Shown here piece after piece: positions 1-29,801 of a stretch of 32,000 nt of DNA (positions are counted from its first letter, which is position 1; each line of letters opens with the position of its first letter). The translations under genes and the position numbers were made by a program. The stretch lies in contig NC_000916.1 of assembly GCF_000008645.1 (NCBI RefSeq), positions 990,001 through 1,022,000 on the forward strand, given 5' to 3'. The DNA is from Methanothermobacter thermautotrophicus str. Delta H (GTDB lineage Archaea > Methanobacteriota > Methanobacteria > Methanobacteriales > Methanothermobacteraceae). The notes under the pieces were generated by a model. It searched no databases. It saw only the letters and a list, made by a program, of their open reading frames with translations, and was not told where the DNA came from.

Positions 1-1584
1 TCTGTTTCACCTCTTCTTTTTTTCTTTGTGATTTCAATCCCATTTTGGTCTGATTTTAACTTTATTAATTTAGTATTGGTTGTTTGGTTAATTCATTTCA
101 ATCCCATTTTGGTCTGATTTTAACATATATACCATATTGAACATTGATTTTAGCGTTTTTATTTCAATCCCATTTTGGTCTGATTTTAACCCAGCAGAAA
201 CAGTAATAGTCAAATATTATAAGCACAATTTCAATCCCATTTTGGTCTGATTTTAACCTTGATAAGGGTAGTAAACGAACCCGATAGTGAATATATTTCA
301 ATCCCATTTTGGTCTGATTTTAACCCAAATAAAACGTTAATATCGATTTAATTCCAATAATTTCAATCCCATTTTGGTCTGATTTTAACCGTTTCAACTA
401 ATGAAACTGTCTTAAATTGCTTATTTATTTCAATCCCATTTTGGTCTGATTTTAACTCGCAGAACATCATACACATCAGGTAGTCTATACAGTATTTCAA
501 TCCCATTTTGGTCTGATTTTAACTGATGGTTTTGATGTTTTGTGTAAAATTCGTGAGATTTCAATCCCATTTTGGTCTGATTTTAACGAAGTCACACTGA
601 ATACGAAGAAATACAAGACACAGTATTTCAATCCCATTTTGGTCTGATTTTAACCCGGTCCTTGACGGGAAAATCTACAGGGCCACAATAGATTTCAATC
701 CCATTTTGGTCTGATTTTAACACACAGTACAATTATTCGGAATAATACACGCACAATGATTTCAATCCCATTTTGGTCTGATTTTAACATGAACATGCAG
801 ATAAAAGATGATATAATAGAAAAATATTTCAATCCCATTTTGGTCTGATTTTAACAAGTATTTTTCTGAATTCACGGATTGCTTCGCATTTCAATCCCAT
901 TTTGGTCTGATTTTAACTATAATCGAATATTGTTGCGTATTGTGTTGTGTTTTTATTTCAATCCCATTTTGGTCTGATTTTAACAGGTTCTTGTGGGTTA
1001 TTGTTGTCCTAGTCCAGTTTACACATTTCAATCCCATTTTGGTCTGATTTTAACCTAAAGTTTCTCTGTAGTCCACATCCCCTTTTTTCAATTTCAATCC
1101 CATTTTGGTCTGATTTTAACTGAGGTGACAAGTATCAGGTTCTCACAGTGTTTCATGATTTCAATCCCATTTTGGTCTGATTTTAACACCGATGGTACCT
1201 CAGGATACTATTCCCACCACTCACCATTTCAATCCCATTTTGGTCTGATTTTAACTTGAAGACTCATACTACTTAGACAGTTTTGAATTCGATTTCAATC
1301 CCATTTTGGTCTGATTTTAACATCGAGGAATTCTATTTTATCCTCACCAGGATAGCGGATTTCAATCCCATTTTGGTCTGATTTTAACATGTTTTCCGTT
1401 ATACTATAGTGCGTTTTGGTATTGATTTCAATCCCATTTTGGTCTGATTTTAACCCATACCACACATTTGGATTGTAGGTGGTTGATGTTAATTTCAATC
1501 CCATTTTGGTCTGATTTTAACTAGCGGTTAATGTCGTCGATGTCCCTTGTTATTATTTCAATCCCATTTTGGTCTGATTTTAAC
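1..1584 (-). CRISPR. CRISPR array with 24 identical 30-bp repeats, 23 complete spacers (32-40 bp, mostly 36-37) and a partial spacer at 1-30. The array continues beyond the left edge.
   Basis: Repeat ATTTCAATCCCATTTTGGTCTGATTTTAAC was read at 31-60, 95-124, 161-190, 228-257, 295-324, 360-389, 427-456, 494-523, 558-587, 625-654, 692-721, 759-788, 826-855, 888-917, 955-984, 1025-1054, 1091-1120, 1158-1187, 1226-1255, 1292-1321, 1359-1388, 1425-1454, 1492-1521 and 1555-1584. Its reverse complement, GTTAAAATCAGACCAAAATGGGATTGAAAT, ends in ATTGAAAT, the 8-nt handle typical of Cas6-processed type I/III repeats. The crRNA sense is therefore the minus strand, the same as the cas genes. Confidence 0.98.
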
Positions 1585-2193
1585 AGGGCGGATTTTTTCT
1601 TCATTTGACCTCTATCGCTTTGAAATTTCTCCTTTCAGACATATAAATTTGTCGATCCCAGAAAATGCATTCTATTTATATGGATAGACGACTTAACAGA
1701 AGGTATTAAAATCCATAAATAAGACATTTAAAGTATTTAAATCAATTTAAAAAGAATTTTGGCAGGATAAAAAACCATCAGGTTGATAATAAAACCTTTA
1801 ATCCTGAAAGAAGCTTAAAATAACATTATGTTATTATAATGGGATGCTGAAAAATGGCTCATAAACGACTGAACGAAAGGACCCCGATTGGATATATGGA
1901 TTATTTAATCAATTTAAATTGAATTTTAAGATTTTTTAGTGTGATAAAGAATAAATAAAATCTTTAAAATGGTAGCCAAGGTTTCATGAAAAATCTAATT
2001 CAACATGACCAAAAAATAAATGTTTTTGGGGACATTTAATTAAAAATAGATGCTTATAAAACCTGAATTTGTCATAAAACCCTCTGGACTTCATTACAAA
2101 GAATAAAATGACCACGACGCTTCTTAGCAATATGCAAACCATGGAAGTATAACGTTGGTGAGGTTAACTCATTGCCAAAGAGTCTTTAAATAT
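1585..2193 (-). promoter_or_regulatory. AT-rich CRISPR leader with a putative array promoter
   Basis: This region abuts the repeat end that is upstream in crRNA sense. It is strongly AT-rich and has no ORF of 60 aa or more on either strand. A TATA-like AAATTTATAT (minus strand, 1641-1650) lies about 57 nt upstream of the first repeat. An internal 21-nt near-repeat, AATCAATTTAAANNGAATTTT, occurs at about 1740 and about 1908. Confidence 0.6.
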
Positions 2194-2438
2194 CGATAAT
2201 GCCCATTAAAAACAATTAAAGCACCAAAGTTAATAAGAGTTCCTTAGAGACACAATAGAGACACAATAAGGGCAATAGCGACATTAAAACAATTAAAGCA
2301 CCACAGTTAATCCATGCAATGACTGTGGTGACGGGGGCTTCGCAGACATTAAAACAATTAAAGCACATAGATTGCGGGGGTGGAAACAACCACCCCCAAG
2401 GGCTTCGCAGACATTAAAACAATTAAAGCACCAAAGTT
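2194..2438. repeat. Cryptic four-copy interspersed repeat array: a 31-bp unit with a 65-bp period, distinct from the main CRISPR repeat
   Basis: GGCTTCGCAGACATTAAAACAATTAAAGCAC occurs at 2336-2366 and 2401-2431 (identical). A variant GGCAATAGCGACATTAAAACAATTAAAGCAC is at 2271-2301, and a degenerate copy is at 2194-2224. The core ACAATTAAAGCAC sits at 2212, 2289, 2354 and 2419. See findings. Confidence 0.8.
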
Positions 2439-2461
2439 CACTTACAGGCAGAGTAGTCTCT

Positions 2462-2467
2462 AAAAAA
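2462..2467 (-). terminator. Oligo-T (T6) tract just downstream of the csm6 stop codon (2 nt after it), an archaeal-type terminator candidate
   Basis: The minus strand reads TAA-TC-TTTTTT-A after the stop at 2470-2472. Confidence 0.4.
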
Positions 2468-2469
2468 GA

Positions 2470-3672
2470 TTATAAGCGGGGAAAGGTTGCATTATCTATT
2501 TTTGAATCTATTCTCTCATCGATCATACGTGCATATTCAAGAACCTTATCATAGAACCTCTCGTATTGCTCTCCGTTAACGGATTCAAATCCATGGGCCA
2601 GTATTGAATGGTTCCGGATCCTAAGGAGATCCAGTATCTCATTATCCTTACCGAAGGCCCTCCCCACATCATGCCCTTCGCATTCAAGGAGCCTGTATGC
2701 ATTTTTGAGGGCGAGGTGTTTTTTACCGTCCAGTTTGAGGGCTGCCCTGGTACTCATGGCATATTTATCTGGATTGATACTGTCTGTTTCATCACCGTAC
2801 TCTTCCTCGATTAATATCTGGGCTATGAGTTCAAGTGCACGGTAAAGCCTCGCAGCTGCATCATCATACCGGCCCTCAGAGGCTCTCCTCCTGGAATTGG
2901 CAAGAAGATCCGGAAGGAATGGCCGGTATTTATATTTGCGTCTTCCATTCCTTGAGCTGATTATCTCTCCCAGTATGCTCTTGTTTCTCTTTATAACATC
3001 CTCAAGTTCCTCAAGGGAGTTGACCTCATCGCTATTAAGATAATCGAGGGCCTCCTCATGTTCAAAGAGGTCCCAGTGGAGGTACGCCCTTGTGAGTTTG
3101 ATGTAGGCCTCTTTTCTTTCATGGTTCACCACATCATTTTCAAGTATCTGGAGGGCTGTTTCAAACCTTCCATGGTTGAATAGTTCCTTGAATCGCCTTA
3201 TATTCAGTTTATCGTATATCTGGTAGGTGTTCTGTTCTATATTAGACTCTGTTCCACTCTGAACTGTCCCATTCCTGTCACGAAACCCTGTTATCACTGA
3301 GAGCTCCTTTCTGTAGAGTATCCCCATAACAAAGGCTATAGAGGTCATTGTCTTGGTCCCTGAGGTGTAATCGATTATAACCTCCTGGTCGCCATATATC
3401 TTCATCTGCTCCTCAAACTTGTCGAACAATTCTTTGACGCCGTCAATGTCAAGTATCTCAATGAATTTATATTCGGGTAGATCCTTTCCCTGCGCCTCTG
3501 CCTCCTCCTTTATGTACTCAACGGTCTTTTTGCTCATCTCTGACCCAAAGAAGACTATTTTATCGGGTCTTTTGTTGGTTATTGATTGGAAGAGTCCATG
3601 GGCCAGACTCCTGATGCGGTCCTCTGATGTTCCTGTGCCAGTTCCCACCGTCATGAAGAGTACTCTATCCAT
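2470..3672 (-). CDS. csm6: Csm6-family CARF-HEPN ribonuclease (type III accessory effector, cyclic-oligoadenylate responsive)
   Basis: The 400-aa ORF has an N-terminal CARF-like Rossmann signature (LFMTVGTGTG, DYTSGTKTMT). Its C-terminal HEPN R-X6-H motif is RNHSILAHG, preceded by YRALELIAQ. It is the last gene of the csm operon and overlaps the csm5 stop by 8 nt. Confidence 0.85.
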   Translation of the reverse strand: MDRVLFMTVGTGTGTSEDRIRSLAHGLFQSITNKRPDKIVFFGSEMSKKTVEYIKEEAEAQGKDLPEYKFIEILDIDGVKELFDKFEEQMKIYGDQEVIIDYTSGTKTMTSIAFVMGILYRKELSVITGFRDRNGTVQSGTESNIEQNTYQIYDKLNIRRFKELFNHGRFETALQILENDVVNHERKEAYIKLTRAYLHWDLFEHEEALDYLNSDEVNSLEELEDVIKRNKSILGEIISSRNGRRKYKYRPFLPDLLANSRRRASEGRYDDAAARLYRALELIAQILIEEEYGDETDSINPDKYAMSTRAALKLDGKKHLALKNAYRLLECEGHDVGRAFGKDNEILDLLRIRNHSILAHGFESVNGEQYERFYDKVLEYARMIDERIDSKIDNATFPRL

Positions 3673-3952
3673 TGAAGATCACCTTAACCCAGCCGGGTGG
3701 TATTCTGCCATCTATTAGCTTCCTTGTCTTTGGAAACTCATAGGGATAACTTCTTCCCCTGCTGACTTTTCTTATGGATTCATAGGTCCTGTAATCATCC
3801 TCCTTGAATCTGAGGCCTATGGTGGTTGCAAGGAAGCCGCTGCCCTGTCCTATCCTCATGAGGGGGTTTTCAGGGGAGTTCCTTTTTTTCAAGTTTTCTG
3901 TATATCCTCTCAAGGAAATCCACGCCATACCTTGATGCGAAATCCAGCTCAT
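3665..3952 (-). CDS. csm5: Csm5 C-terminal fragment (RAMP glycine-rich loop region) in the +1 frame relative to the upstream fragment
   Basis: The translation contains PLMRIGQGSGFLATTIGL and PKTRKLIDGRIPPGWVKV, typical of a Csm5/RAMP C-terminus. The first roughly 20 residues of this track ORF are probably not real. The useful frame begins at the A7 tract at 3883-3889. Confidence 0.75.
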   Translation of the reverse strand: MSWISHQGMAWISLRGYTENLKKRNSPENPLMRIGQGSGFLATTIGLRFKEDDYRTYESIRKVSRGRSYPYEFPKTRKLIDGRIPPGWVKVIFNG

Positions 3953-4730
3953 GTTCTATGTAGTCCCTGCTGAAGGTGTAAAGGGATTCCCTTATGGTTT
4001 CAGGGTCAACAAGTTCCCTTTTATTCCGCAACCCGATCCTATCATATACATCGTTATAGGTGAAGTTCATCTCAAATTCCAGTTTTTTTCGTGGTATGAA
4101 CTCAAGGTAGAGCGGAAACTTCTTATAGCTGTATGATCCGCCTGAGACCGTGAGGACCCTGACCATGTGAAGTGCAGGTGCCTTTGAGGTGTTTGTGTCT
4201 GTAACCTCCAGGAACCTCATTATACTTTTCTTTGCAGTATCACGTGGGTCAGATGAGAAGAAACTGTTTATGATTTTATTCGGATCCCCTCGATGTCCCC
4301 TGCTGACTTCCTCCGAAATTCTTTCAAGGTCAGAATCCCTCAGGTTTTTATAGAGTAGAGCCGTTCTTATAGATCCCTTGATTGATGAACCCGGAATATA
4401 TATCTCATCAGAGGTTTTAATGTGCTCATGAACATCCTTTATGTTTGAGCTTTCTGTTTTAAGAAAGCCCCTGTATCTCACAGCCCTCCTTGCAGCTTTT
4501 TTAAATTTTTTCATACTGTCAAGCTGGAAATCTTGCGTTGATATGTGATCAACAAGTTCATCCCTTGCATCATCATCAAGTTCACTGTAGAGTTTCGAAA
4601 CGTCGACCCTCCCAAAAATTGGGACAAGCTTATCCCCTGACTTCGCCTTTCCGGTGTAAAACTCCTGGGGCCCATAGGTTGTGCCGTTGCCTATATGGAC
4701 CGGTGTTATAACCTCAAGGGTGCATTGCAA
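3870..4730 (-). CDS. csm5: Csm5 N-terminal portion (286 aa), terminated prematurely after an A7 tract
   Basis: The N-terminus, (TTG)QCTLEVITPVHIGNG, is a RAMP G-rich start, and an IPGSSIKGSIRTAL motif is present. Its position after csm4 fits csm5. The stop lies 12 nt after the AAAAAAA run. Confidence 0.85.
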   Translation of the reverse strand: MQCTLEVITPVHIGNGTTYGPQEFYTGKAKSGDKLVPIFGRVDVSKLYSELDDDARDELVDHISTQDFQLDSMKKFKKAARRAVRYRGFLKTESSNIKDVHEHIKTSDEIYIPGSSIKGSIRTALLYKNLRDSDLERISEEVSRGHRGDPNKIINSFFSSDPRDTAKKSIMRFLEVTDTNTSKAPALHMVRVLTVSGGSYSYKKFPLYLEFIPRKKLEFEMNFTYNDVYDRIGLRNKRELVDPETIRESLYTFSRDYIEHELDFASRYGVDFLERIYRKLEKKELP

Positions 4731-5645: not shown

Positions 5646-6383
5646 TCACTCTGCAGTTGTATTGATATCTGCAAGGGATTCGAAATCCCCCATAGTGCTT
5701 TCGCCGGCTTCTCCACGGTAATATTCTACGGGCCTCTCTCTGATTTTTATGTTCTTGAATTCGATCTTACCGTAGCCCCTTGTACCGCTTCCACCAAGGT
5801 AGCTGTCCTCAAGGAGTCTGAGTCCCTCAAGTACAATTCTGAGGTTATCACTGTCACCATCATATTCACTCACTATTATCTCAAATCCAAATTTTGATCC
5901 CCTTGGAACCCTCTCCTGGTTCCTTGGATTTGCCATTGAGGTTATCCTGTTCAGGTTGTTCTCGTACTTAAGTTCAGCTCCTTCAACCACTTCACTGCTC
6001 TCCTTCCACTCCTCCACCGTTTCATCTGTTGGGAAGGCGTCTCTTACTATTATTCTTGTGGGCCCTGAACTGCTACTGCTATCTGTTCTTGTGGGCCCTG
6101 AACTGCTACTGCTATCTGCTGCGCTTCCAAATACCCTGCAGATTTCACATTTCCCGCATTTACATGGCCCGCCATTGCTTACACGGTCGAGTTCAAGCTC
6201 AAGGAGGGATCTCATCTTACCCTTGATTGATGATCCGGGGATGTAGGGTAGCCTCGTCACCGGATCCCTTATTATGGGGTTATCTGAGCCCCCTATCTCA
6301 ATGGAGTCCTTGGATACTCCTATGTGGAGTCCTGTTCTGCACAGGATTTCGCCTGTTATAATATAATTTTTCTGGAACCTCAT
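5646..6383 (-). CDS. csm3: Csm3 (Cas7-like backbone and target-RNA-cleaving RAMP)
   Basis: The 245-aa ORF contains GLHIGVS...IGGSDNPIIRDP...LPYIPGSSIKGKMRS, a Cys cluster CKCGKCEICRVFG, RIIVRDA, and C-terminal LGGSGTRGYGK. Confidence 0.92.
   Translation of the reverse strand: MRFQKNYIITGEILCRTGLHIGVSKDSIEIGGSDNPIIRDPVTRLPYIPGSSIKGKMRSLLELELDRVSNGGPCKCGKCEICRVFGSAADSSSSSGPTRTDSSSSSGPTRIIVRDAFPTDETVEEWKESSEVVEGAELKYENNLNRITSMANPRNQERVPRGSKFGFEIIVSEYDGDSDNLRIVLEGLRLLEDSYLGGSGTRGYGKIEFKNIKIRERPVEYYRGEAGESTMGDFESLADINTTAE
6054..6119. repeat. 33-bp x2 in-frame tandem duplication inside csm3
   Basis: TCTTGTGGGCCCTGAACTGCTACTGCTATCTGT (6054-6086) is followed by the same 33-mer ending in C (6087-6119), 32/33 identical. 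It encodes (A/T)DSSSSSGPTR twice. Confidence 0.95.
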
Positions 6384-6833: not shown

Positions 6834-9267
6834 TTCTTGTTCTTAAGCTGACCCATGACACCGGTATTCTGATCCATGGGATGAACCTGATCCCCTCATT
6901 AAAGAGCTCCCTTCTAATTTCCCTGTCAGATATATTTCTCAGTTTATAGACATAGTAGGGGACGTAGTCCTTTATGCGGAGCCTCAGCTCCTGGGATTCG
7001 ACCCATTCATCGAAATCCCTGATATCTTCATTGAATGATGATTCATGGAGTTTAAGAAGGGAATATACGAAGTTCTTGGACAGTTTTCCATTTCTTTGGA
7101 GTTTCTCCAGTCTCATGCCGAATTCAAGGAGTTCATTGAATCCCATGAAATGGTCTGTATCCCACTGTACCGTCTCCCCAAATACAGATATTTTTCCCTT
7201 ACCAAGGTTCTTGGATAGTTCAAGCTGCTTTTCTGCAATTTCAGCAGCTTTGCCGGCGGGAAACTTATGTCCGCCCATGAATATGCCTGCTGATATCTCA
7301 ATTGAGGGGTTTTCGCACGTCCATTCCCTGAATTCGTTCCGGAGTCTTCCAGCGAATTCAATTATATCATCGTATGGGCCGAACACAAGGACATCGTCTC
7401 CTCCAGAGTAGGTTATGTATATGGTTGGAGTTGACCTTTCTCTGCATTCATCGCAGATTTCAGAGCTGGACGCTGATGATGGGCGGTATACTGTTCCAAT
7501 TTCGCTTTTTATACTCATAAGTTTATCCCTACACCCATCGCAGGGCTCTCTTATGAAGAAGAACTCGGACGCGACCTGGTTTATGTATCCAAGGAAAAAG
7601 AGGTCCATGAAGGAGCTCATTGTCGAGATCCTTGATATTGATCGGTTCTCCAGTCCCTGGCTGAATATCTGTCCAAGGTTATCAACGTCCATCTTCAGGG
7701 TGGCCAGTTTACCTGCTCCAATGCTCAGGGATGATATCTCTGTGAAGTCAAGAGCTCTCTTCCTTCCACCATCAACCTCTACAGGCACAGTGTTTCCCAT
7801 CAGGGTAAATCCAAAGGACACATTTTCATTCTGAATCCTGTCCTGAATTCCAAGGAAGTCTGTGCTGTTCAGCCTCAGCAATTCTATCCTTCCGCCGAAA
7901 TCTGCCAGATTATCGAGCCTTGAAACAACAGAATCTTCTGTTTCAAAGAAGTATGATATTCCCCCCTCATTGAAATCAGAATCCATGGATCCATGAACCC
8001 TTATCATGTAATCTGCATTGGCAGCCCTTGCCCCCAGTTCTTCATGGGATCTGCACGAGCCACAGATGGTTGAAGATGAGGGCAGACCACAGACGGCACA
8101 TGTTTGAGATGGAGCCTCCTCCTCAAATGTGAAGAACTCGTTGAGGAGTTCCCTGAACTTCGACCTCTTGTTTCTGAGGTTCCTCTGGGCAAGCTTATCC
8201 ATGATGGCGCCGAAATCCTTAAGTTCATCACCGTTTACCTCGATGTAGGAAAGTGCAAGGTAGAGTTCCGCGTTGAAGGCCCCTATGAATCTCTGGTTAA
8301 CCTCCCTGGAAACCCTATCAAGGATATCCTTCACTTCCTGAGTATTTGGAAGTATGATTGTGAAGTGTCCACCTCCGCAGAAGAGTATGTTTGGCTGGGA
8401 TAGTCCTGCCTCAGATATTATCCTGTTTGCAACTGCATCTGTGAGGAGGCTTATGTAGAGGGATCTTCCCCTCAGACGTTTGCTCATACCCTTCTGTGCT
8501 TCCTCAGGAGATTTTACACTGGTTATGAAGTTCTGAATCCCTGATAGGTCGCCTGATACAATGAGGTATGGTTTACCCCCATTCCCCTCTTTCCTGTGAA
8601 GGTAGAGACATCCTGCCAGGGCTGCTGTCGTCTTGAGGTGGTCGAAGAGGGATATGTCTGGAACGCTCATATAGACTGCTGATGGAATCAGGGATGTGTA
8701 CTTTTTGAGGAGGTGGTGGAGCGTGCTGACATCAAAGTTTTTGAGTTCAGCCACCTCTGAGGTGAAGAGTTTCCAGAGTCTCCGGTATTCTCTCTCAAGG
8801 TTCCAGCCAGCCATAACCTGCCTTTTTATCCTATCTGGTTTTGTTCCTTTAAGATCCGTTGGTATGAGTTCCCGGAGGGGTAGATAGTATTCACCCTCTG
8901 CTTTTTCCCTTTCAGGTAGTCTGACCTGGGAGAATACTGATATCAACGGGTGTTCTTTAACCTCCTGTTTTGATTCCGACTTCTCCCTTTCACTTGCTGA
9001 ATGATGGTCCGCGTCCCTTATTATTCTGGCATATTCAGGATTCATGGAATTTGAAGGCTTGTGATGGTAGAGCACAAGGTCCTCTATATCCTCACCGAGG
9101 CCATGGTCAGCCACAAAGCTTGCTGACCATTTACCATGGGCTCCTGATTCCCCAAAATCAGACCTGGTGAGGCCACTATATTTATCACTGTGAGGTGAAG
9201 ATGTTCTCTGATAAAATTTACCTATGTCATGTAGGAGTGCAGCTAGCTGTATATCCTCAAGATTCAT
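6814..9267 (-). CDS. cas10: Cas10/Csm1 with an N-terminal HD nuclease domain and a GGDD cyclase Palm domain
   Basis: An HD motif (AALLHDIGKF) lies near the N-terminus. A Zn-ribbon-like CAVCG...CGSC is present, and the GGDD motif reads TYSGGDDVLVFG. The ORF track starts at TTG 9282, but ATG 9267 (MNLEDIQ...) is more likely. Confidence 0.93.
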   Translation of the reverse strand: MNLEDIQLAALLHDIGKFYQRTSSPHSDKYSGLTRSDFGESGAHGKWSASFVADHGLGEDIEDLVLYHHKPSNSMNPEYARIIRDADHHSASEREKSESKQEVKEHPLISVFSQVRLPEREKAEGEYYLPLRELIPTDLKGTKPDRIKRQVMAGWNLEREYRRLWKLFTSEVAELKNFDVSTLHHLLKKYTSLIPSAVYMSVPDISLFDHLKTTAALAGCLYLHRKEGNGGKPYLIVSGDLSGIQNFITSVKSPEEAQKGMSKRLRGRSLYISLLTDAVANRIISEAGLSQPNILFCGGGHFTIILPNTQEVKDILDRVSREVNQRFIGAFNAELYLALSYIEVNGDELKDFGAIMDKLAQRNLRNKRSKFRELLNEFFTFEEEAPSQTCAVCGLPSSSTICGSCRSHEELGARAANADYMIRVHGSMDSDFNEGGISYFFETEDSVVSRLDNLADFGGRIELLRLNSTDFLGIQDRIQNENVSFGFTLMGNTVPVEVDGGRKRALDFTEISSLSIGAGKLATLKMDVDNLGQIFSQGLENRSISRISTMSSFMDLFFLGYINQVASEFFFIREPCDGCRDKLMSIKSEIGTVYRPSSASSSEICDECRERSTPTIYITYSGGDDVLVFGPYDDIIEFAGRLRNEFREWTCENPSIEISAGIFMGGHKFPAGKAAEIAEKQLELSKNLGKGKISVFGETVQWDTDHFMGFNELLEFGMRLEKLQRNGKLSKNFVYSLLKLHESSFNEDIRDFDEWVESQELRLRIKDYVPYYVYKLRNISDREIRRELFNEGIRFIPWIRIPVSWVSLRTRNGDIHE

Positions 9268-9391: not shown

Positions 9392-9667
9392 TCAGAGAAT
9401 AACATCAAGTGGTGATTTCTCCAGGCCAAGAACATTGCGGTTCATGGCCCTCTCAGACCTGAAGGAGTATATGATAACAGAGTCCCGTTCACGATCGATA
9501 ATTCTCTCAAGGTTTGTTTCTATGCGCCTAAACTGGCTTTCAGTTACTTCTCCCTCAAATACGGAATTCTGGACCCAGTGAAGTTCTGTCCTTAGATATG
9601 ACTTCACCCGGTTAACCCTCTCAACCCCCACATCGTATACAATTAGAAGGTACACAGTTACCACCAC
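9392..9667 (-). CDS. cas2: Cas2
   Basis: The 91-aa ORF reads YLLIVYDVGVERVNRVKSYL...WVQNSVFEGE, the classic Cas2 ferredoxin fold signature. It has a GTG start that overlaps the cas1 stop. Confidence 0.92.
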   Translation of the reverse strand: MVVTVYLLIVYDVGVERVNRVKSYLRTELHWVQNSVFEGEVTESQFRRIETNLERIIDRERDSVIIYSFRSERAMNRNVLGLEKSPLDVIL

Positions 9668-10632
9668 ATCACGAATGGTTCATAACTCTTCTGACCGATT
9701 AAATGTTTGATGAGCTTGTATGCCTCCAGCCTTATTAGACGTCTGTATGAAACTTTTCTCCCCAGTTCCCTGTGTTTAACTGTCTTCCCAAGACGTCTGT
9801 CATACTCTGCGAGAAATTTCCTTTTACCAGAATTGTTAAGGAGACAATGATTCATTCCATGCTCAAAATCTTCAGCCTTAATCGCTTTTTTCTTGATAAG
9901 GGAAATTATCATCCTGTCAATGAGGGTTGGTTTGAATATCTCACTTAGGTCCAGGGCGAGTGAATATCTCCTTTCAAAGGGTTCATGTAAATAGGAGATG
10001 GTTGGATTAAGCTGTGTATTGTAAAGTTCAGTTATTACTGTTGAGTAGAGGAGTGAGTTCCCAAAGCTTATCATGGCATTGGTCATATTTTCAGGGGGTC
10101 TGCGTGTCCTCTTACCTATCCTGAATCCTTCAGGAAGGATACTGTCAATTGCATTGTAGTAATCTGAACGTATCCTTCCCTCGACATTCATGACATCGGT
10201 TACTGAATTTGAGGAGTCCAGATCCATCAGTGTATCAGAAATCCCATTTTCGATGCCATAGTAACTCAGAACCCTCCTCATGTTAAGGGCGGCTCCCCTG
10301 ACAAATGACCTTGCAAGTTCAATTCTTTTATCATGGTCAATGACATGTTCGGCCTGTTTAATAATTACATCTCCAGATAGAAGCGTCTCGCGGGGGTAGA
10401 AACTGCCACTGTAGAAGCCATATCTGTTGAAAAAGTGGATGGGTATGCCTTCCTTTGATAGAAGATTCAGGGCCTGTGACGATATTGTCAGGGCGCCATA
10501 GGAGTATATCGAATAAATTTTGTTTATGGGTATTGGTCGCTTTAAATCCTTGTTGATGAAGTATAACGTGTTTTCATTCCTTTTAAGCAAGCCATCTGTT
10601 GTTATATAGTAGTTTTTTCTTGTCATGATCAT
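9658..10632 (-). CDS. cas1: Cas1 integrase
   Basis: This roughly 324-aa ORF sits between cas4 and cas2. The track start is TTG 10662, which overlaps cas4. ATG 10632 or 10626 (MIMTRKNYYIT) just after the cas4 stop is more likely. Confidence 0.9.
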   Translation of the reverse strand: MIMTRKNYYITTDGLLKRNENTLYFINKDLKRPIPINKIYSIYSYGALTISSQALNLLSKEGIPIHFFNRYGFYSGSFYPRETLLSGDVIIKQAEHVIDHDKRIELARSFVRGAALNMRRVLSYYGIENGISDTLMDLDSSNSVTDVMNVEGRIRSDYYNAIDSILPEGFRIGKRTRRPPENMTNAMISFGNSLLYSTVITELYNTQLNPTISYLHEPFERRYSLALDLSEIFKPTLIDRMIISLIKKKAIKAEDFEHGMNHCLLNNSGKRKFLAEYDRRLGKTVKHRELGRKVSYRRLIRLEAYKLIKHLIGQKSYEPFVMWW

Positions 10633-10642
10633 CCCACACTGC

Positions 10643-11170
10643 TCAAGCCCAGCAGAGTTCAAAGTAAGCGCAGCTTCTGCAGATGGGTTTTCTCTGGGGG
10701 GCTGGTGGAGGTCCCATTATTATCCTATCAATTTCATGGATCACTCTACGAAGTTCCTCTTCATCTTCAGCACTAAGTGAAACCTCGGTTCTCTTTTTAA
10801 GAGCTGGGTAGTCAATGAATCCCCTGATCTTTTCTATTCCCTTTTCATTTTTTAGGTAGAATAGATAATATAGAAGCTGGAACCTGTGGGCCTCCTCCAT
10901 GGTCATGCCCTTTTTAACCTCATGGACCTCCAGGTAACCTTTTCTTTTAACAAAATCAGCGGCTATAAGATCATCAATTATCAATTCCTTTTTCTCACGT
11001 GTATATGATTCCTCATGTAACAGTTTCCCCAGTTTAACGAGTTCAGACTCCCGTTCCATACTAATATGGTGGGAGAAGAACCATAGCTTGGTTTTGCAGA
11101 TGAAGTAATAGTTTATCTGCAATCCCCTGACTCTGAGGTTATCCTCTCCGATTATCAAGAAAACCGCCAT
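10643..11170 (-). CDS. cas4: Cas4 (RecB-like nuclease with a C-terminal Fe-S Cys cluster)
   Basis: This 175-aa ORF has an N-terminal Cys in YYFICKTKLW, an E-V-K nuclease motif (EVHEVKKG), and C-terminal CRSCAYFELC. Confidence 0.88.
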   Translation of the reverse strand: MAVFLIIGEDNLRVRGLQINYYFICKTKLWFFSHHISMERESELVKLGKLLHEESYTREKKELIIDDLIAADFVKRKGYLEVHEVKKGMTMEEAHRFQLLYYLFYLKNEKGIEKIRGFIDYPALKKRTEVSLSAEDEEELRRVIHEIDRIIMGPPPAPQRKPICRSCAYFELCWA

Positions 11171-18560: not shown

Positions 18561-18705
18561 ATCTCACAGATAACTCAATTCCCGCATTATTTTAAAAATG
18601 TGCTAAACCCTTCAACCTTAAAAAGAATAATATAATATTATCCTGGGAATTTGATGGCCTCTTTATGCGCAGCCCCTCTGTCTCCCCCTAAATGACCTCC
18701 TGGAT

Positions 18706-19479
18706 CTACATGAGGTTCTGCTCCTTCCTGTTGAAGAGGAAGGCTGCGATGAGTACCGCTATCACCGCAAAGATGGTTATCACCAGGAGGTTAACCTCAA
18801 GGGGGAGCACAGATCTTCTGAGTATTGTGAACCTGAGGGCATCCACTGCATAGGTGAGGGGGTTGATGTACACCGCGCCCTGAAGCCATGCTGGAAGCCC
18901 TGTTATCGGGAAGAGGGCCCCGCTCAGGAGGAATATGGGGAGCACTATGAAGCTCATTATGAGGTTGAATCCCTCCATGCTGTCGGTGAAGGCTGCTATC
19001 ACCAGTCCGAGGCCCCCGAGGCCCATGGAGATTATGAGGGCTATCACCATGCTCACAATAAAGCACTGGGGTGACATGGTGATTCCGACTATGAATGACA
19101 GGGCAAGGAGTATTGCTGCCTGTATCATTGAGGCCGTGCTTATACCCAGCGCCTTTCCAACCACCATTGACTCCCTTGAGATGGGTGCCACCAGGATCTC
19201 CTTCAGGAACCCGTACTGCCTGTCAATTATCACCGAGACCCCCGAGAATATGCTGGTGAAGAGCACTGTCTGGCCTATTATACCCGGGTATATGAATGCC
19301 TTGTAGCCCCCAGGGACTCCCCCGAATCTGACCGCGGCCCCCAGCCCTGTCCCGAATATTATGAGCCAGAGGAGGGGTGTGACTATTGATGTGACTATCC
19401 TTGACCTGTACCTGAAGAACCTCTTCATTTCACGGAGCCATATCGTGTATATACCTTCAATTTCAGCCATCCAGATCAC
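18706..19479 (-). CDS. ABC-2 type transporter permease
   Basis: This 257-aa polytopic membrane protein (about 6 hydrophobic segments) has a GTG start that overlaps the stop of the upstream ATPase (GTGA). Confidence 0.8.
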   Translation of the reverse strand: MIWMAEIEGIYTIWLREMKRFFRYRSRIVTSIVTPLLWLIIFGTGLGAAVRFGGVPGGYKAFIYPGIIGQTVLFTSIFSGVSVIIDRQYGFLKEILVAPISRESMVVGKALGISTASMIQAAILLALSFIVGITMSPQCFIVSMVIALIISMGLGGLGLVIAAFTDSMEGFNLIMSFIVLPIFLLSGALFPITGLPAWLQGAVYINPLTYAVDALRFTILRRSVLPLEVNLLVITIFAVIAVLIAAFLFNRKEQNLM

Positions 19480-22819: not shown

Positions 22820-23296
22820 ATGAGTATTGTTAAGATACCCCTGATGACAAAGGAAGAGTATGATGAGTTCATAGCAGAGAACTTCATAAGCAGGATAGCC
22901 TTCAACGGTGACTATCCATACATAGCCCCATTTCTCTATGTATTTGATGGGGAACACCTCTACTTCCTATCAACGAGGTACGGCAGGAAGATAGAGCTCC
23001 TCAAGAGGAACCCCTACGTCGCTGTTGAAATCGAACACTACAGTGATGACCTTTCAGAGTATCGCTTCGTTACACTGCAGGGCCAGATAGTTGAGGAGAA
23101 TGACCCCTCAACAAAGAGGCGTGTGAAGGAGATGTTCGCTGACCTCATAGAGAAGCGGGGGCTCTCAAGGAACATCCTCAGGGCTCTGGGGCATTCACCA
23201 GAGGACCCACTCAACTGTCTTGTGGAGATGGACCGATCCTATGTCTGGAAACTCGTTGAAGTGGTTGATATAGTCGGGATAAAGGGTGGTGAATGA
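22820..23296 (+). CDS. Pyridoxamine 5'-phosphate oxidase-like FMN-binding split-barrel protein
   Basis: This 158-aa ORF has the pattern ISRIAFNGDYPYIAPFLYVFDGEHLYFLSTRYGRKIELLKRNPYVAVEIE, typical of the PNPOx-like family. Its SD is GGAGGAAAAAGG. Confidence 0.7.
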   Translation: MSIVKIPLMTKEEYDEFIAENFISRIAFNGDYPYIAPFLYVFDGEHLYFLSTRYGRKIELLKRNPYVAVEIEHYSDDLSEYRFVTLQGQIVEENDPSTKRRVKEMFADLIEKRGLSRNILRALGHSPEDPLNCLVEMDRSYVWKLVEVVDIVGIKGGE

Positions 23297-23465
23297 ATTC
23301 AATGGTTCCAGGTCGTTTCAGGATCCACAAATCAACCATAAAACAGTTATAAAGAAATTCAATGGTTCCAGGTGGTTAACCACCCGGAACAGGTTAGGGG
23401 GATGAAAATTAGAAAAAGGGTTAGGGTGGTTTTGAAGGAGTTTAAATGAAGGTTGGGGGGATGAA
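23296..23465. repeat. Two pairs of direct repeats with roughly 60-bp spacing, plus a 14-bp perfect palindrome, in a convergent intergenic region
   Basis: AATTCAATGGTTCCAGGT occurs at 23296-23313 and 23356-23373. AGGTT(A/G)GGGGGATGAA occurs at 23391-23406 and 23450-23465. The palindrome GGTGGTTAACCACC lies at 23371-23384. Confidence 0.85.
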
Positions 23466-24504: not shown

Positions 24505-24601
24505 GAGCCATCCAGACCAGGTCAAATCAAAACCCTCATGGAAGCGGATAGTGTGGGCTGGGATGTACCCGAGCCAGCCAGACCAGGTCAAATCAAAACC
24601 C
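24505..24601. repeat. 31-bp direct repeat pair, 66 bp apart, in a divergent promoter region
   Basis: GAGCCATCCAGACCAGGTCAAATCAAAACCC lies at 24505-24535 and GAGCCAGCCAGACCAGGTCAAATCAAAACCC at 24571-24601, with 30/31 identity. Confidence 0.9.
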
Positions 24602-29719: not shown

Positions 29720-29801
29720 CCCTGAAAATCTTCTTACCAGAATTCCATACATACAAAAAAAACCTTAGAAACGATCCCCTGAAAATCTTCTTACCAGAAT
29801 T
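29720..29801. repeat. 25-bp perfect direct repeat pair in a convergent intergenic region
   Basis: CCCTGAAAATCTTCTTACCAGAATT occurs at 29720-29744 and 29777-29801. Flanking similarity is C(T/C)TTAGAA upstream and CATA(C/T)A downstream. Confidence 0.9.

Follow-up and report, generated by a model that had tools for sequence, protein, structure and literature searches.

A probable natural neo-CRISPR mini-array beside the CRISPR leader of Methanothermobacter thermautotrophicus Delta H

We examined a 32,000-nt stretch of the Methanothermobacter thermautotrophicus str. Delta H chromosome (NC_000916.1, positions 990,001-1,022,000; hereafter the window, with coordinates counted from its start), in which a short cryptic array of repeats lies between the gene for a CARF-domain effector and the leader of the resident CRISPR array. 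This cryptic array is probably a natural "neo-CRISPR" mini-array, nascent and most likely inert, that arose by repeated off-target integrations by Cas1-Cas2. The evidence is a series of one, three and four units among relatives, apparently empty sites, a geometry like that of the resident array, an adaptation module that is intact and active, and the same footprint at other loci. From these observations we infer that Cas1-Cas2 was the agent. The array would be a neutral by-product that probably yields no CRISPR RNA (crRNA), because its unit does not resemble a Cas6 or Cascade substrate.

Structure and growth of the cryptic array

Four copies of the unit are found within 2194-2431, at the places where the original prediction had put them. 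That prediction also held the last two copies to be identical over 31 nt; identical they are, but over 32 nt (2335-2366 and 2400-2431, GGGCTTCGCAGACATTAAAACAATTAAAGCAC). The third copy, at 2270-2301, has 81% identity, and the fourth, around 2194-2234, is degenerate. A 21-nt core, ACATTAAAACAATTAAAGCAC, occurs exactly three times, against no occurrence in 100 shuffles. The spacings of 77, 65 and 65 bp were borne out, the first being 66 bp plus an 11-bp slippage duplication (TAGAGACACAA twice in tandem at 2245-2266), and the geometry of about 31 + 34 bp is CRISPR-like, as had been proposed. The segments flanked by the two identical repeats are dissimilar, and this excludes, for relatives so close, a simple tandem duplication that later diverged.

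The native unit in the window and its relatives joins a 30-bp repeat to spacers of 32-45 nt (mode 36-37 nt, n = 264; mostly 36-37 nt in the resident array itself), with a usual period of 65-67 bp. Duplications in the cryptic array measure 32, 30 and 27-30 bp, and its inserts 33, 35 and 36 nt.

The loci of relatives were recovered from other assemblies through the CARF protein, and they differ in unit number. Three of them (L001-L003), with 99.97-99.99% identity to the window over 7.2 kb of cas genes, carry four units in a cryptic region identical to that of the window; L044 (99.4% identity) has three, while L030 (90.7%) and L031 (85.9%) have one each. With relatives of one, three and four units at hand, the structure therefore appears to have grown from one to three to four toward the window lineage. 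The window is separated from L044 by one clean 65-bp indel, consisting of one repeat and the GGGGGTGG hairpin segment, both absent from L044, and L044 also has a 4-nt insertion in its third repeat. Both outer flanks are conserved around the single unit of L030 and L031, and these loci, judged by their sequences, look like empty sites. The largest clean indels between the window and its close relatives are of 65, 66 and 66 bp.

The place of the cryptic region in Methanothermobacter sp. DP (L035) holds unrelated sequence. A 12-mer common to the two (ATTGCCCTTATT) was considered as a trace of homology, but the alignment is not significant (P = 0.07-0.14) and the 12-mer was taken as chance. More distant CARF loci (L055, L056, L058) have an unlike gene and array arrangement and were uninformative.

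The original prediction had raised the case of a dispersed element of the repetitive extragenic palindromic or miniature inverted-repeat transposable type. Scanning the 20-nt core against one genome per species (185,579 species) gave only single chance matches, of which the sole one in Methanobacteriaceae falls inside a coding gene; the unit is thus not dispersed among the genomes scanned. In a metagenome scan, the only multi-copy locus was the orthologous locus of the sister strain L044; other matches of the pattern scans were rejected as single chance matches, the one in L020 lying within a gene and that in L042 being an unrelated duplicated gene. Short Logan contigs (L004-L010) end about 68 nt past the CARF stop codon, inside the first cryptic repeat. 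The cryptic repeats evidently break short-read assemblies, and the structure will therefore often be missing from metagenome-assembled genomes.

The following course of events would account for the array. Three successive integrations would have struck a non-CRISPR stretch that lies downstream of the CARF gene and some 600 bp upstream of the true junction between leader and repeat. Carrying a prespacer of about 35 bp, the resident Cas1-Cas2(-Cas4) would strike both strands of a pseudo-repeat, at points some 30 bp apart; gap repair would duplicate those 30 bp and leave a duplicate, an insert and a second duplicate with a period of 65-66 bp. The order of events was worked out from shared flanks. 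In the first, the single ancestral unit would have been duplicated around insert X1 (Table 1). The left copy would then have been struck again in the same frame, giving copies a and b around X2. In the third event a frame lying 12 bp away, by then with G-N7-CAGAC as in the true repeat, would have been struck and have yielded the two identical 32-mers around X3. Later slippage would have added the 11-bp duplication and, in L044, the 4-nt insertion.

Footprints of the same geometry at other sites

We searched the window and the related loci, outside the true arrays, for perfect direct repeats of at least 18 nt with periods of 20-200 bp. Six of the eight independent families have a period of 65-67 bp, namely the cryptic array and five other sites. 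An identical search over 240 kb of unrelated control loci gave nothing at periods of 60-70 bp but one microsatellite. Beyond the cryptic array, the footprints have duplications of 31, 30, 30 and 31 bp and inserts of 35, 35, 35 and 35-37 nt.

One such footprint, at 24505-24601, is in the window itself but outside the CRISPR locus, and independent of the cryptic array. Its repeat reads GAGCCA[T/G]CCAGACCAGGTCAAATCAAAACCC, with CAGAC at positions 9-13, and it is intergenic, between the UbiA gene and a divergent gene of 219 aa. The UbiA-family protein of the window is 100% identical to that of CP064324.1. The footprint is present in every strain whose UbiA protein is identical and missing from L067, L068 and L069; L067 preserves the empty site, with a single repeat copy (GAGCCAGCCAGACC...) and no insert. 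At a second site the window is the vacant one: the exact 30-mer at 18680-18709 is duplicated in L067 around a 35-nt insert (18572-18666). The insert of the L067 site at 7200-7420 has a tRNA-like look; an origin from a tRNA gene was considered and dropped, the Rfam scan having found nothing.

Strain DP has a footprint between its CARF gene and leader. This event (L035, 5280-5450) lies inside a possible small hydrophobic open reading frame (MEAETALVIGFLIALILNPM...); its 66 bp amount to 22 codons, which keeps the frame, and a stop codon is added.

Other repeat pairs have shorter periods. A pair of 25-nt repeats in the window (29720-29801, intergenic, period 57 bp) begins with CCCTGAAAATC, resembling the leader-repeat junction CCCT/GTTAAAATC (here and below the stroke marks the junction). 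A second intergenic pair (23281-23377, repeats of about 23-37 nt, period 60 bp) is in the single-copy state in L068, and strain DP has a further pair of 22 nt with a period of 62 bp (L035, 5523-5606).

Table 1. Features of the cryptic array, its locus and the footprints elsewhere (window coordinates unless a related locus is named).
Feature	Coordinates	Strand	Remarks
Resident CRISPR array	1..1584	-	24 copies of the 30-nt repeat GTTAAAATCAGACCAAAATGGGATTGAAAT; crRNA sense is the minus strand
Long leader of resident array	1585..2190	-	About 600 bp; conserved with L030, L031, L035
Copy a (CATTAAAAACAATTAAAGCACCAAAGTTAAT)	2204..2234	+	Putative orthologue of the single ancestral unit and target site; aligns to the sole copy in L030, L031
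Insert X2	2235..2281	+	36 nt of unrelated DNA plus the later 11-bp slippage duplication; reconstructed from flanks common to copies a and b
Copy b	2282..2311	+	30-nt putative duplicate of copy a; one mismatch, one A fewer; 96% identity
Insert X1	2312..2346	+	35 nt; holds ACTGTGGTG; final 12 nt (GGGCTTCGCAGA) would have become part of the next target
Youngest duplicated target, copy 1	2335..2366	+	32 nt; G at 1, CAGAC at 9-13, C at 30, as in the true repeat
Insert X3	2367..2399	+	33 nt; carries the GGGGGTGG/CCACCCCC hairpin; absent with one repeat copy from L044
Youngest duplicated target, copy 2	2400..2431	+	Identical to 2335-2366
Ancestral right flank and 3' untranslated region of CARF gene	2432..2469	-	Flank common to L030
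CARF-HEPN effector gene	2470..3672	-	TIGR02710 family, E = 2.9e-149; "csm6" of the original prediction
Type III-A genes		-	cas10, csm2-5
Type I-B and adaptation genes		-	cas6, cas8b, cas7, cas5, cas3, cas4, cas1, cas2
Adaptation module	9392..11170	-	cas2 9392-9667, cas1 9658-10662, cas4 10643-11170; all three intact
Vacant 30-nt target GTAGATCCAGGAGGTCATTTAGGGGGAGAC	18680..18709	-	At the stop codon of an ABC permease gene
Window footprint	24505..24601	+	31-nt repeats 24505-24535 and 24571-24601 around 35-nt insert 24536-24570; period 66 bp
Footprint in L067	L067 3286		30 + 35 bp
Footprint in L067	L067 7256		About 30 + 37 bp; period 67 bp
Footprint in Methanothermobacter sp. DP	L035 5310		31 + 35 bp; between CARF gene and leader

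Integrase preferences and competing explanations

The leader-proximal spacers are unlike in each of L001, L002, L003 and the window (1518-1584 in the window; about 8118-8160 in L001-L003), despite cas-gene identity of at least 99.97%. Adaptation is therefore active, and the differences, as read from these sequences, point to rapid and continuing spacer turnover.

The Pyrococcus furiosus Cas1-Cas2 proteins alone catalyze full-site integration in vitro, including at non-CRISPR sites (Grainy et al. 2019, PMC6698737). These off-target sites have G/C residues 30-31 bp apart and scattered positions that match the repeat (G1, A12, A17 and others) rather than overall similarity to it, and one efficient site is only 43% identical to the repeat (PMC6698737). 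The sites in the loci studied here agree with these rules in part. All five clean duplications have G/C at both ends, against a background of 0.22 per 30-mer. Two of the five (the youngest cryptic target and the 24505 site) have G-N7-CAGAC in exact register with the true repeat, a motif present, outside the array, in only some 20 of roughly 60,000 frames of the window. The frame of the youngest target agrees at 8 of the 11 positions common to the P. furiosus off-target logo and the resident repeat, which places it in the top 0.2% of window 30-mers. The 13/30 alignment of unit and main repeat with CAGAC in register, described in the original prediction, is correct, and overall similarity is not above chance (best 14/30, mean of shuffles 14.5, P = 0.80); the CAGAC offset, equal to that of the true repeat, turns out to be informative.

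Several observations weigh against off-target integration by Cas1-Cas2. Pooled over the five sites, the motif tests are weak (P = 0.04-0.15), and events 1 and 2 use another frame with poor repeat resemblance (3/11 key positions). The youngest event measures 32 + 33 bp in place of 30 + 35/36, which needs two chance matching junction bases, and spacers of 33 nt are rare among native ones (3/264). The three-unit state of L044 could be a deletion between identical repeats instead of an ancestral state. Every example comes from DNA no more than about 25 kb from the CRISPR-cas locus, a bias of sampling, and the repeat pairs at 29720 and 23281 of the window (periods of 57 and 60 bp) and the one in strain DP (62 bp) do not match the CRISPR unit and are unexplained. 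None of the eight inserts, which share no sequence among themselves, matches phages, plasmids or IMG/VR (six scans) or the collected loci, although with one match for 23 native spacers the power of this search is low. Lastly, two of the three inserts in the cryptic array form or help to form strong hairpins. Both of the GC-rich hairpins originally described are real, one within X3 and the other formed by ACTGTGGTG of X1 with CACCACAGT of copy b, and they are unusual by the standard of native spacers, where perfect stems of at least 8 bp occur in 6/279 (2%); the free energy of inter-repeat segment S1 is within the lowest 0.7%. The hairpins hint at selection or at a different source of DNA. RNA folding of the cryptic region (minus strand, z = -1.4; plus strand, z = -3.5) draws its signal from the two palindromes and fails to separate the hypotheses.

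The misfit pairs and the untraced inserts would also suit a duplication-insertion process other than Cas1-Cas2, such as another integrase or a repair pathway, that gives a 30-bp duplication with a 35-bp insert; none of the inserts could be traced to a protospacer, and the pairs of 57, 60 and 62 bp fall outside the CRISPR unit. Under such a process, however, agreement with the lengths of the resident repeat and spacers would have to arise by coincidence six times, and the inserts, having no common sequence, do not represent a single mobile element. The target duplications of known transposases and casposases are much shorter. We regard an unrelated process of this kind as unlikely.

Four readings of the array had been offered in the original prediction, and none of them agrees with the comparative data. 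The first to be considered is a set of tandem terminators, or an insulator, that sets the csm operon apart from the promoter of the array, in which a T-rich unit (GCTTTAATTGTTTT(T)AATG on the sense strand) was amplified for useful extra termination. Placed just past the CARF gene, the unit has a T-rich minus strand; T5 occurs in its ancestral copy in the window and likewise in L030 and L031, one hairpin adjoins a T-rich tract, and the S2 hairpin with CTTTAATTGTTTT after it looks like an intrinsic terminator. A conserved run of T6-T9, however, already stands directly after the CARF stop codon in all four lineages (window, L030, L031, L035), and a T6 run at 2462-2467 (minus strand), inside the CARF 3' untranslated region, is the likely operon terminator; the added copies carry T4 only. 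Copy number ranges from one to four among close relatives whose arrays are all active. A consensus scan found no terminator, this being a bacterial promoter and terminator scan that is uninformative for an archaeon. Neither the unrelated 33-36-bp inserts between identical repeats nor the like geometry at unrelated loci is explained by termination. Amplified terminators are an improbable origin.

A second reading took the array for a CreA-like RNA, or more broadly for a CRISPR-derived regulatory mini-array (CreA, CreR or another crRNA-like RNA) that acts through Cascade or Csm, into which it is loaded, to repress a promoter or toxin. The setting is suitable, inside a composite I-B/III-A locus and beside an array, with CRISPR-like geometry, and mini-arrays are common in composite loci (PMC10120712). 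Yet the unit does not look like the repeat, relatives conserve neither position nor copy number, and there is no seed-type promoter match in the 32-kb window, where the best matches (10-14 nt) are at chance level and all in coding regions. The survey of mini-arrays itself reported neither conserved mini-arrays nor targets for type III loci (PMC10120712). A regulatory mini-array is very improbable. Rfam covariance models gave no match at the gathering threshold anywhere in the window.

Adjacency to the III-A genes and the degenerate terminal copy would suit the decayed remains of another CRISPR array, brought in together with the III-A module, but outgroup strains with the same module have a single copy, the two copies farthest from the ancestral one are identical, the extra unit is specific to the window lineage, and the 20-nt repeat core matches no array in the 185,579 species genomes; with unit number rising from one through three to four toward the window lineage, the array appears nascent and not decaying, and a relic origin is highly doubtful. 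Tandem minus-strand micropeptide genes (MSAKPLGVVVSTPAIYVL and others) are barely credible: the frames exist, every unit opening an ATG...TAA, but the ATGs have no Shine-Dalgarno sequence before them, the peptides show no relation apart from MSAKP, itself encoded by the repeat, the 4-nt insertion in L044 shifts the third frame, and L030 and L031 are without these frames.

The resident locus and comparison with known systems

The composite CRISPR-cas locus, with type I-B and type III-A genes, is on the minus strand of the window. The leader of the resident array ends ...CCGCCCT/GTTA at the first repeat, and the junction motif CCCT/GTTA is reported to be critical for P. furiosus Cas1-Cas2 (PMC6698737). 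One native spacer (655-692) is a 97.4% match to Methanobacterium phage psiM2 (AF065411 / NC_001902, 12197-12234); the resident array therefore targets a known phage of the genus. The leader has an internal repeat at 1700-1970 with a period of about 167 bp (TTAAATCAATTTAAA at 1737 and 1904; AATAAAACCTTTAA at 1788 and 1954), together with inverted copies of motifs, a pattern which suggests that part of the long leader has itself been duplicated.

Among the effector genes, csm5 is split into two open reading frames (3870-4730 and 3665-3952) by one extra base in the homopolymer at 3883-3889, which counts 7 bases here and 6 in L001-L003; the Csm5 of L001-L003 is an unbroken protein of 354 aa, and the split is either a real frameshift or a sequencing error. 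The csm3 gene holds a perfect 33-bp tandem duplication (11 codons, in frame) at 6053-6118 that is single-copy in L044. An apparent 5' truncation of cas6 proved to be an artefact of start-codon choice in the list of open reading frames, the DNA being identical to that of a strain whose annotated Cas6 has 245 aa.

It is still debated how CRISPR arrays and families of repeats first come into being, and natural evidence for off-target integration has hitherto been circumstantial. The kind of event proposed here is known from experiments; the cryptic array would be a new and unusually well-documented natural instance, with a natural series of one, three and four units and independent footprints with preserved empty sites in an organism with active adaptation. 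A list of in vivo off-target sites also makes the target rules of an archaeal I-B integrase readable (G/C borders 30 bp apart, G-N7-CAGAC). The integrase would leave scars in intergenic DNA of the host, which array-finding software may report as small "questionable" CRISPRs. A bolder view, unlikely to our minds, is that the array has been caught at birth, off-target integration being frequent enough to act as a mutational force near the locus, and that its three-spacer product might undergo transcription and find a use, for instance as a new family of repeats or as regulatory RNAs; the origin of new CRISPR repeats would then be directly observable in natural strains.

The cryptic array resembles a canonical CRISPR array in its 65-66 bp periodicity, its unique inter-repeat segments and its growth unit by unit. 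It differs in that its repeat is unrelated to known families, the register shifts between events, it has no dedicated leader, and there is no evidence of processing. With the CreA and CreR mini-arrays (Shmakov et al. 2023, PMC10120712) it has in common a short array-like structure in or beside a cas locus; those are defined by degenerate CRISPR repeats, conservation in related loci and a partial promoter match, none of which holds here (PMC10120712).

The likeness to the P. furiosus system extends to the 30-nt repeat and the CCCT/GTTA junction, and the identity of the unit to the repeat (13/30 = 43%) equals the 43% of the P. furiosus off-target site (PMC6698737). In P. furiosus the targets were plasmids in vitro, whereas here the footprints are genomic (PMC6698737). 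The positional rule from that system is supported for the youngest target (8/11) and weakly for all sites pooled (P about 0.05).

A close parallel to the series of events proposed here is in Escherichia coli. Neo-CRISPR loci from off-target spacer integration in that species were reportedly described by Nivala, Shipman and Church in Nature Microbiology in 2018. Off-target integration there is reported to seed "neo-CRISPR" arrays in vivo, and the natural cases given are only circumstantial and from two other species (10.1101/148544, PMC7054753). Both systems have a repeat-length duplication of non-CRISPR sequence around a spacer-sized insert, and repeated strikes can seed an array. The E. coli loci reportedly needed overexpression of Cas1-Cas2, whereas the events here would be natural ones in an archaeon with a composite I-B/III-A locus; and the cryptic array would have three events stacked beside a true leader, polymorphic among strains, with empty sites preserved.

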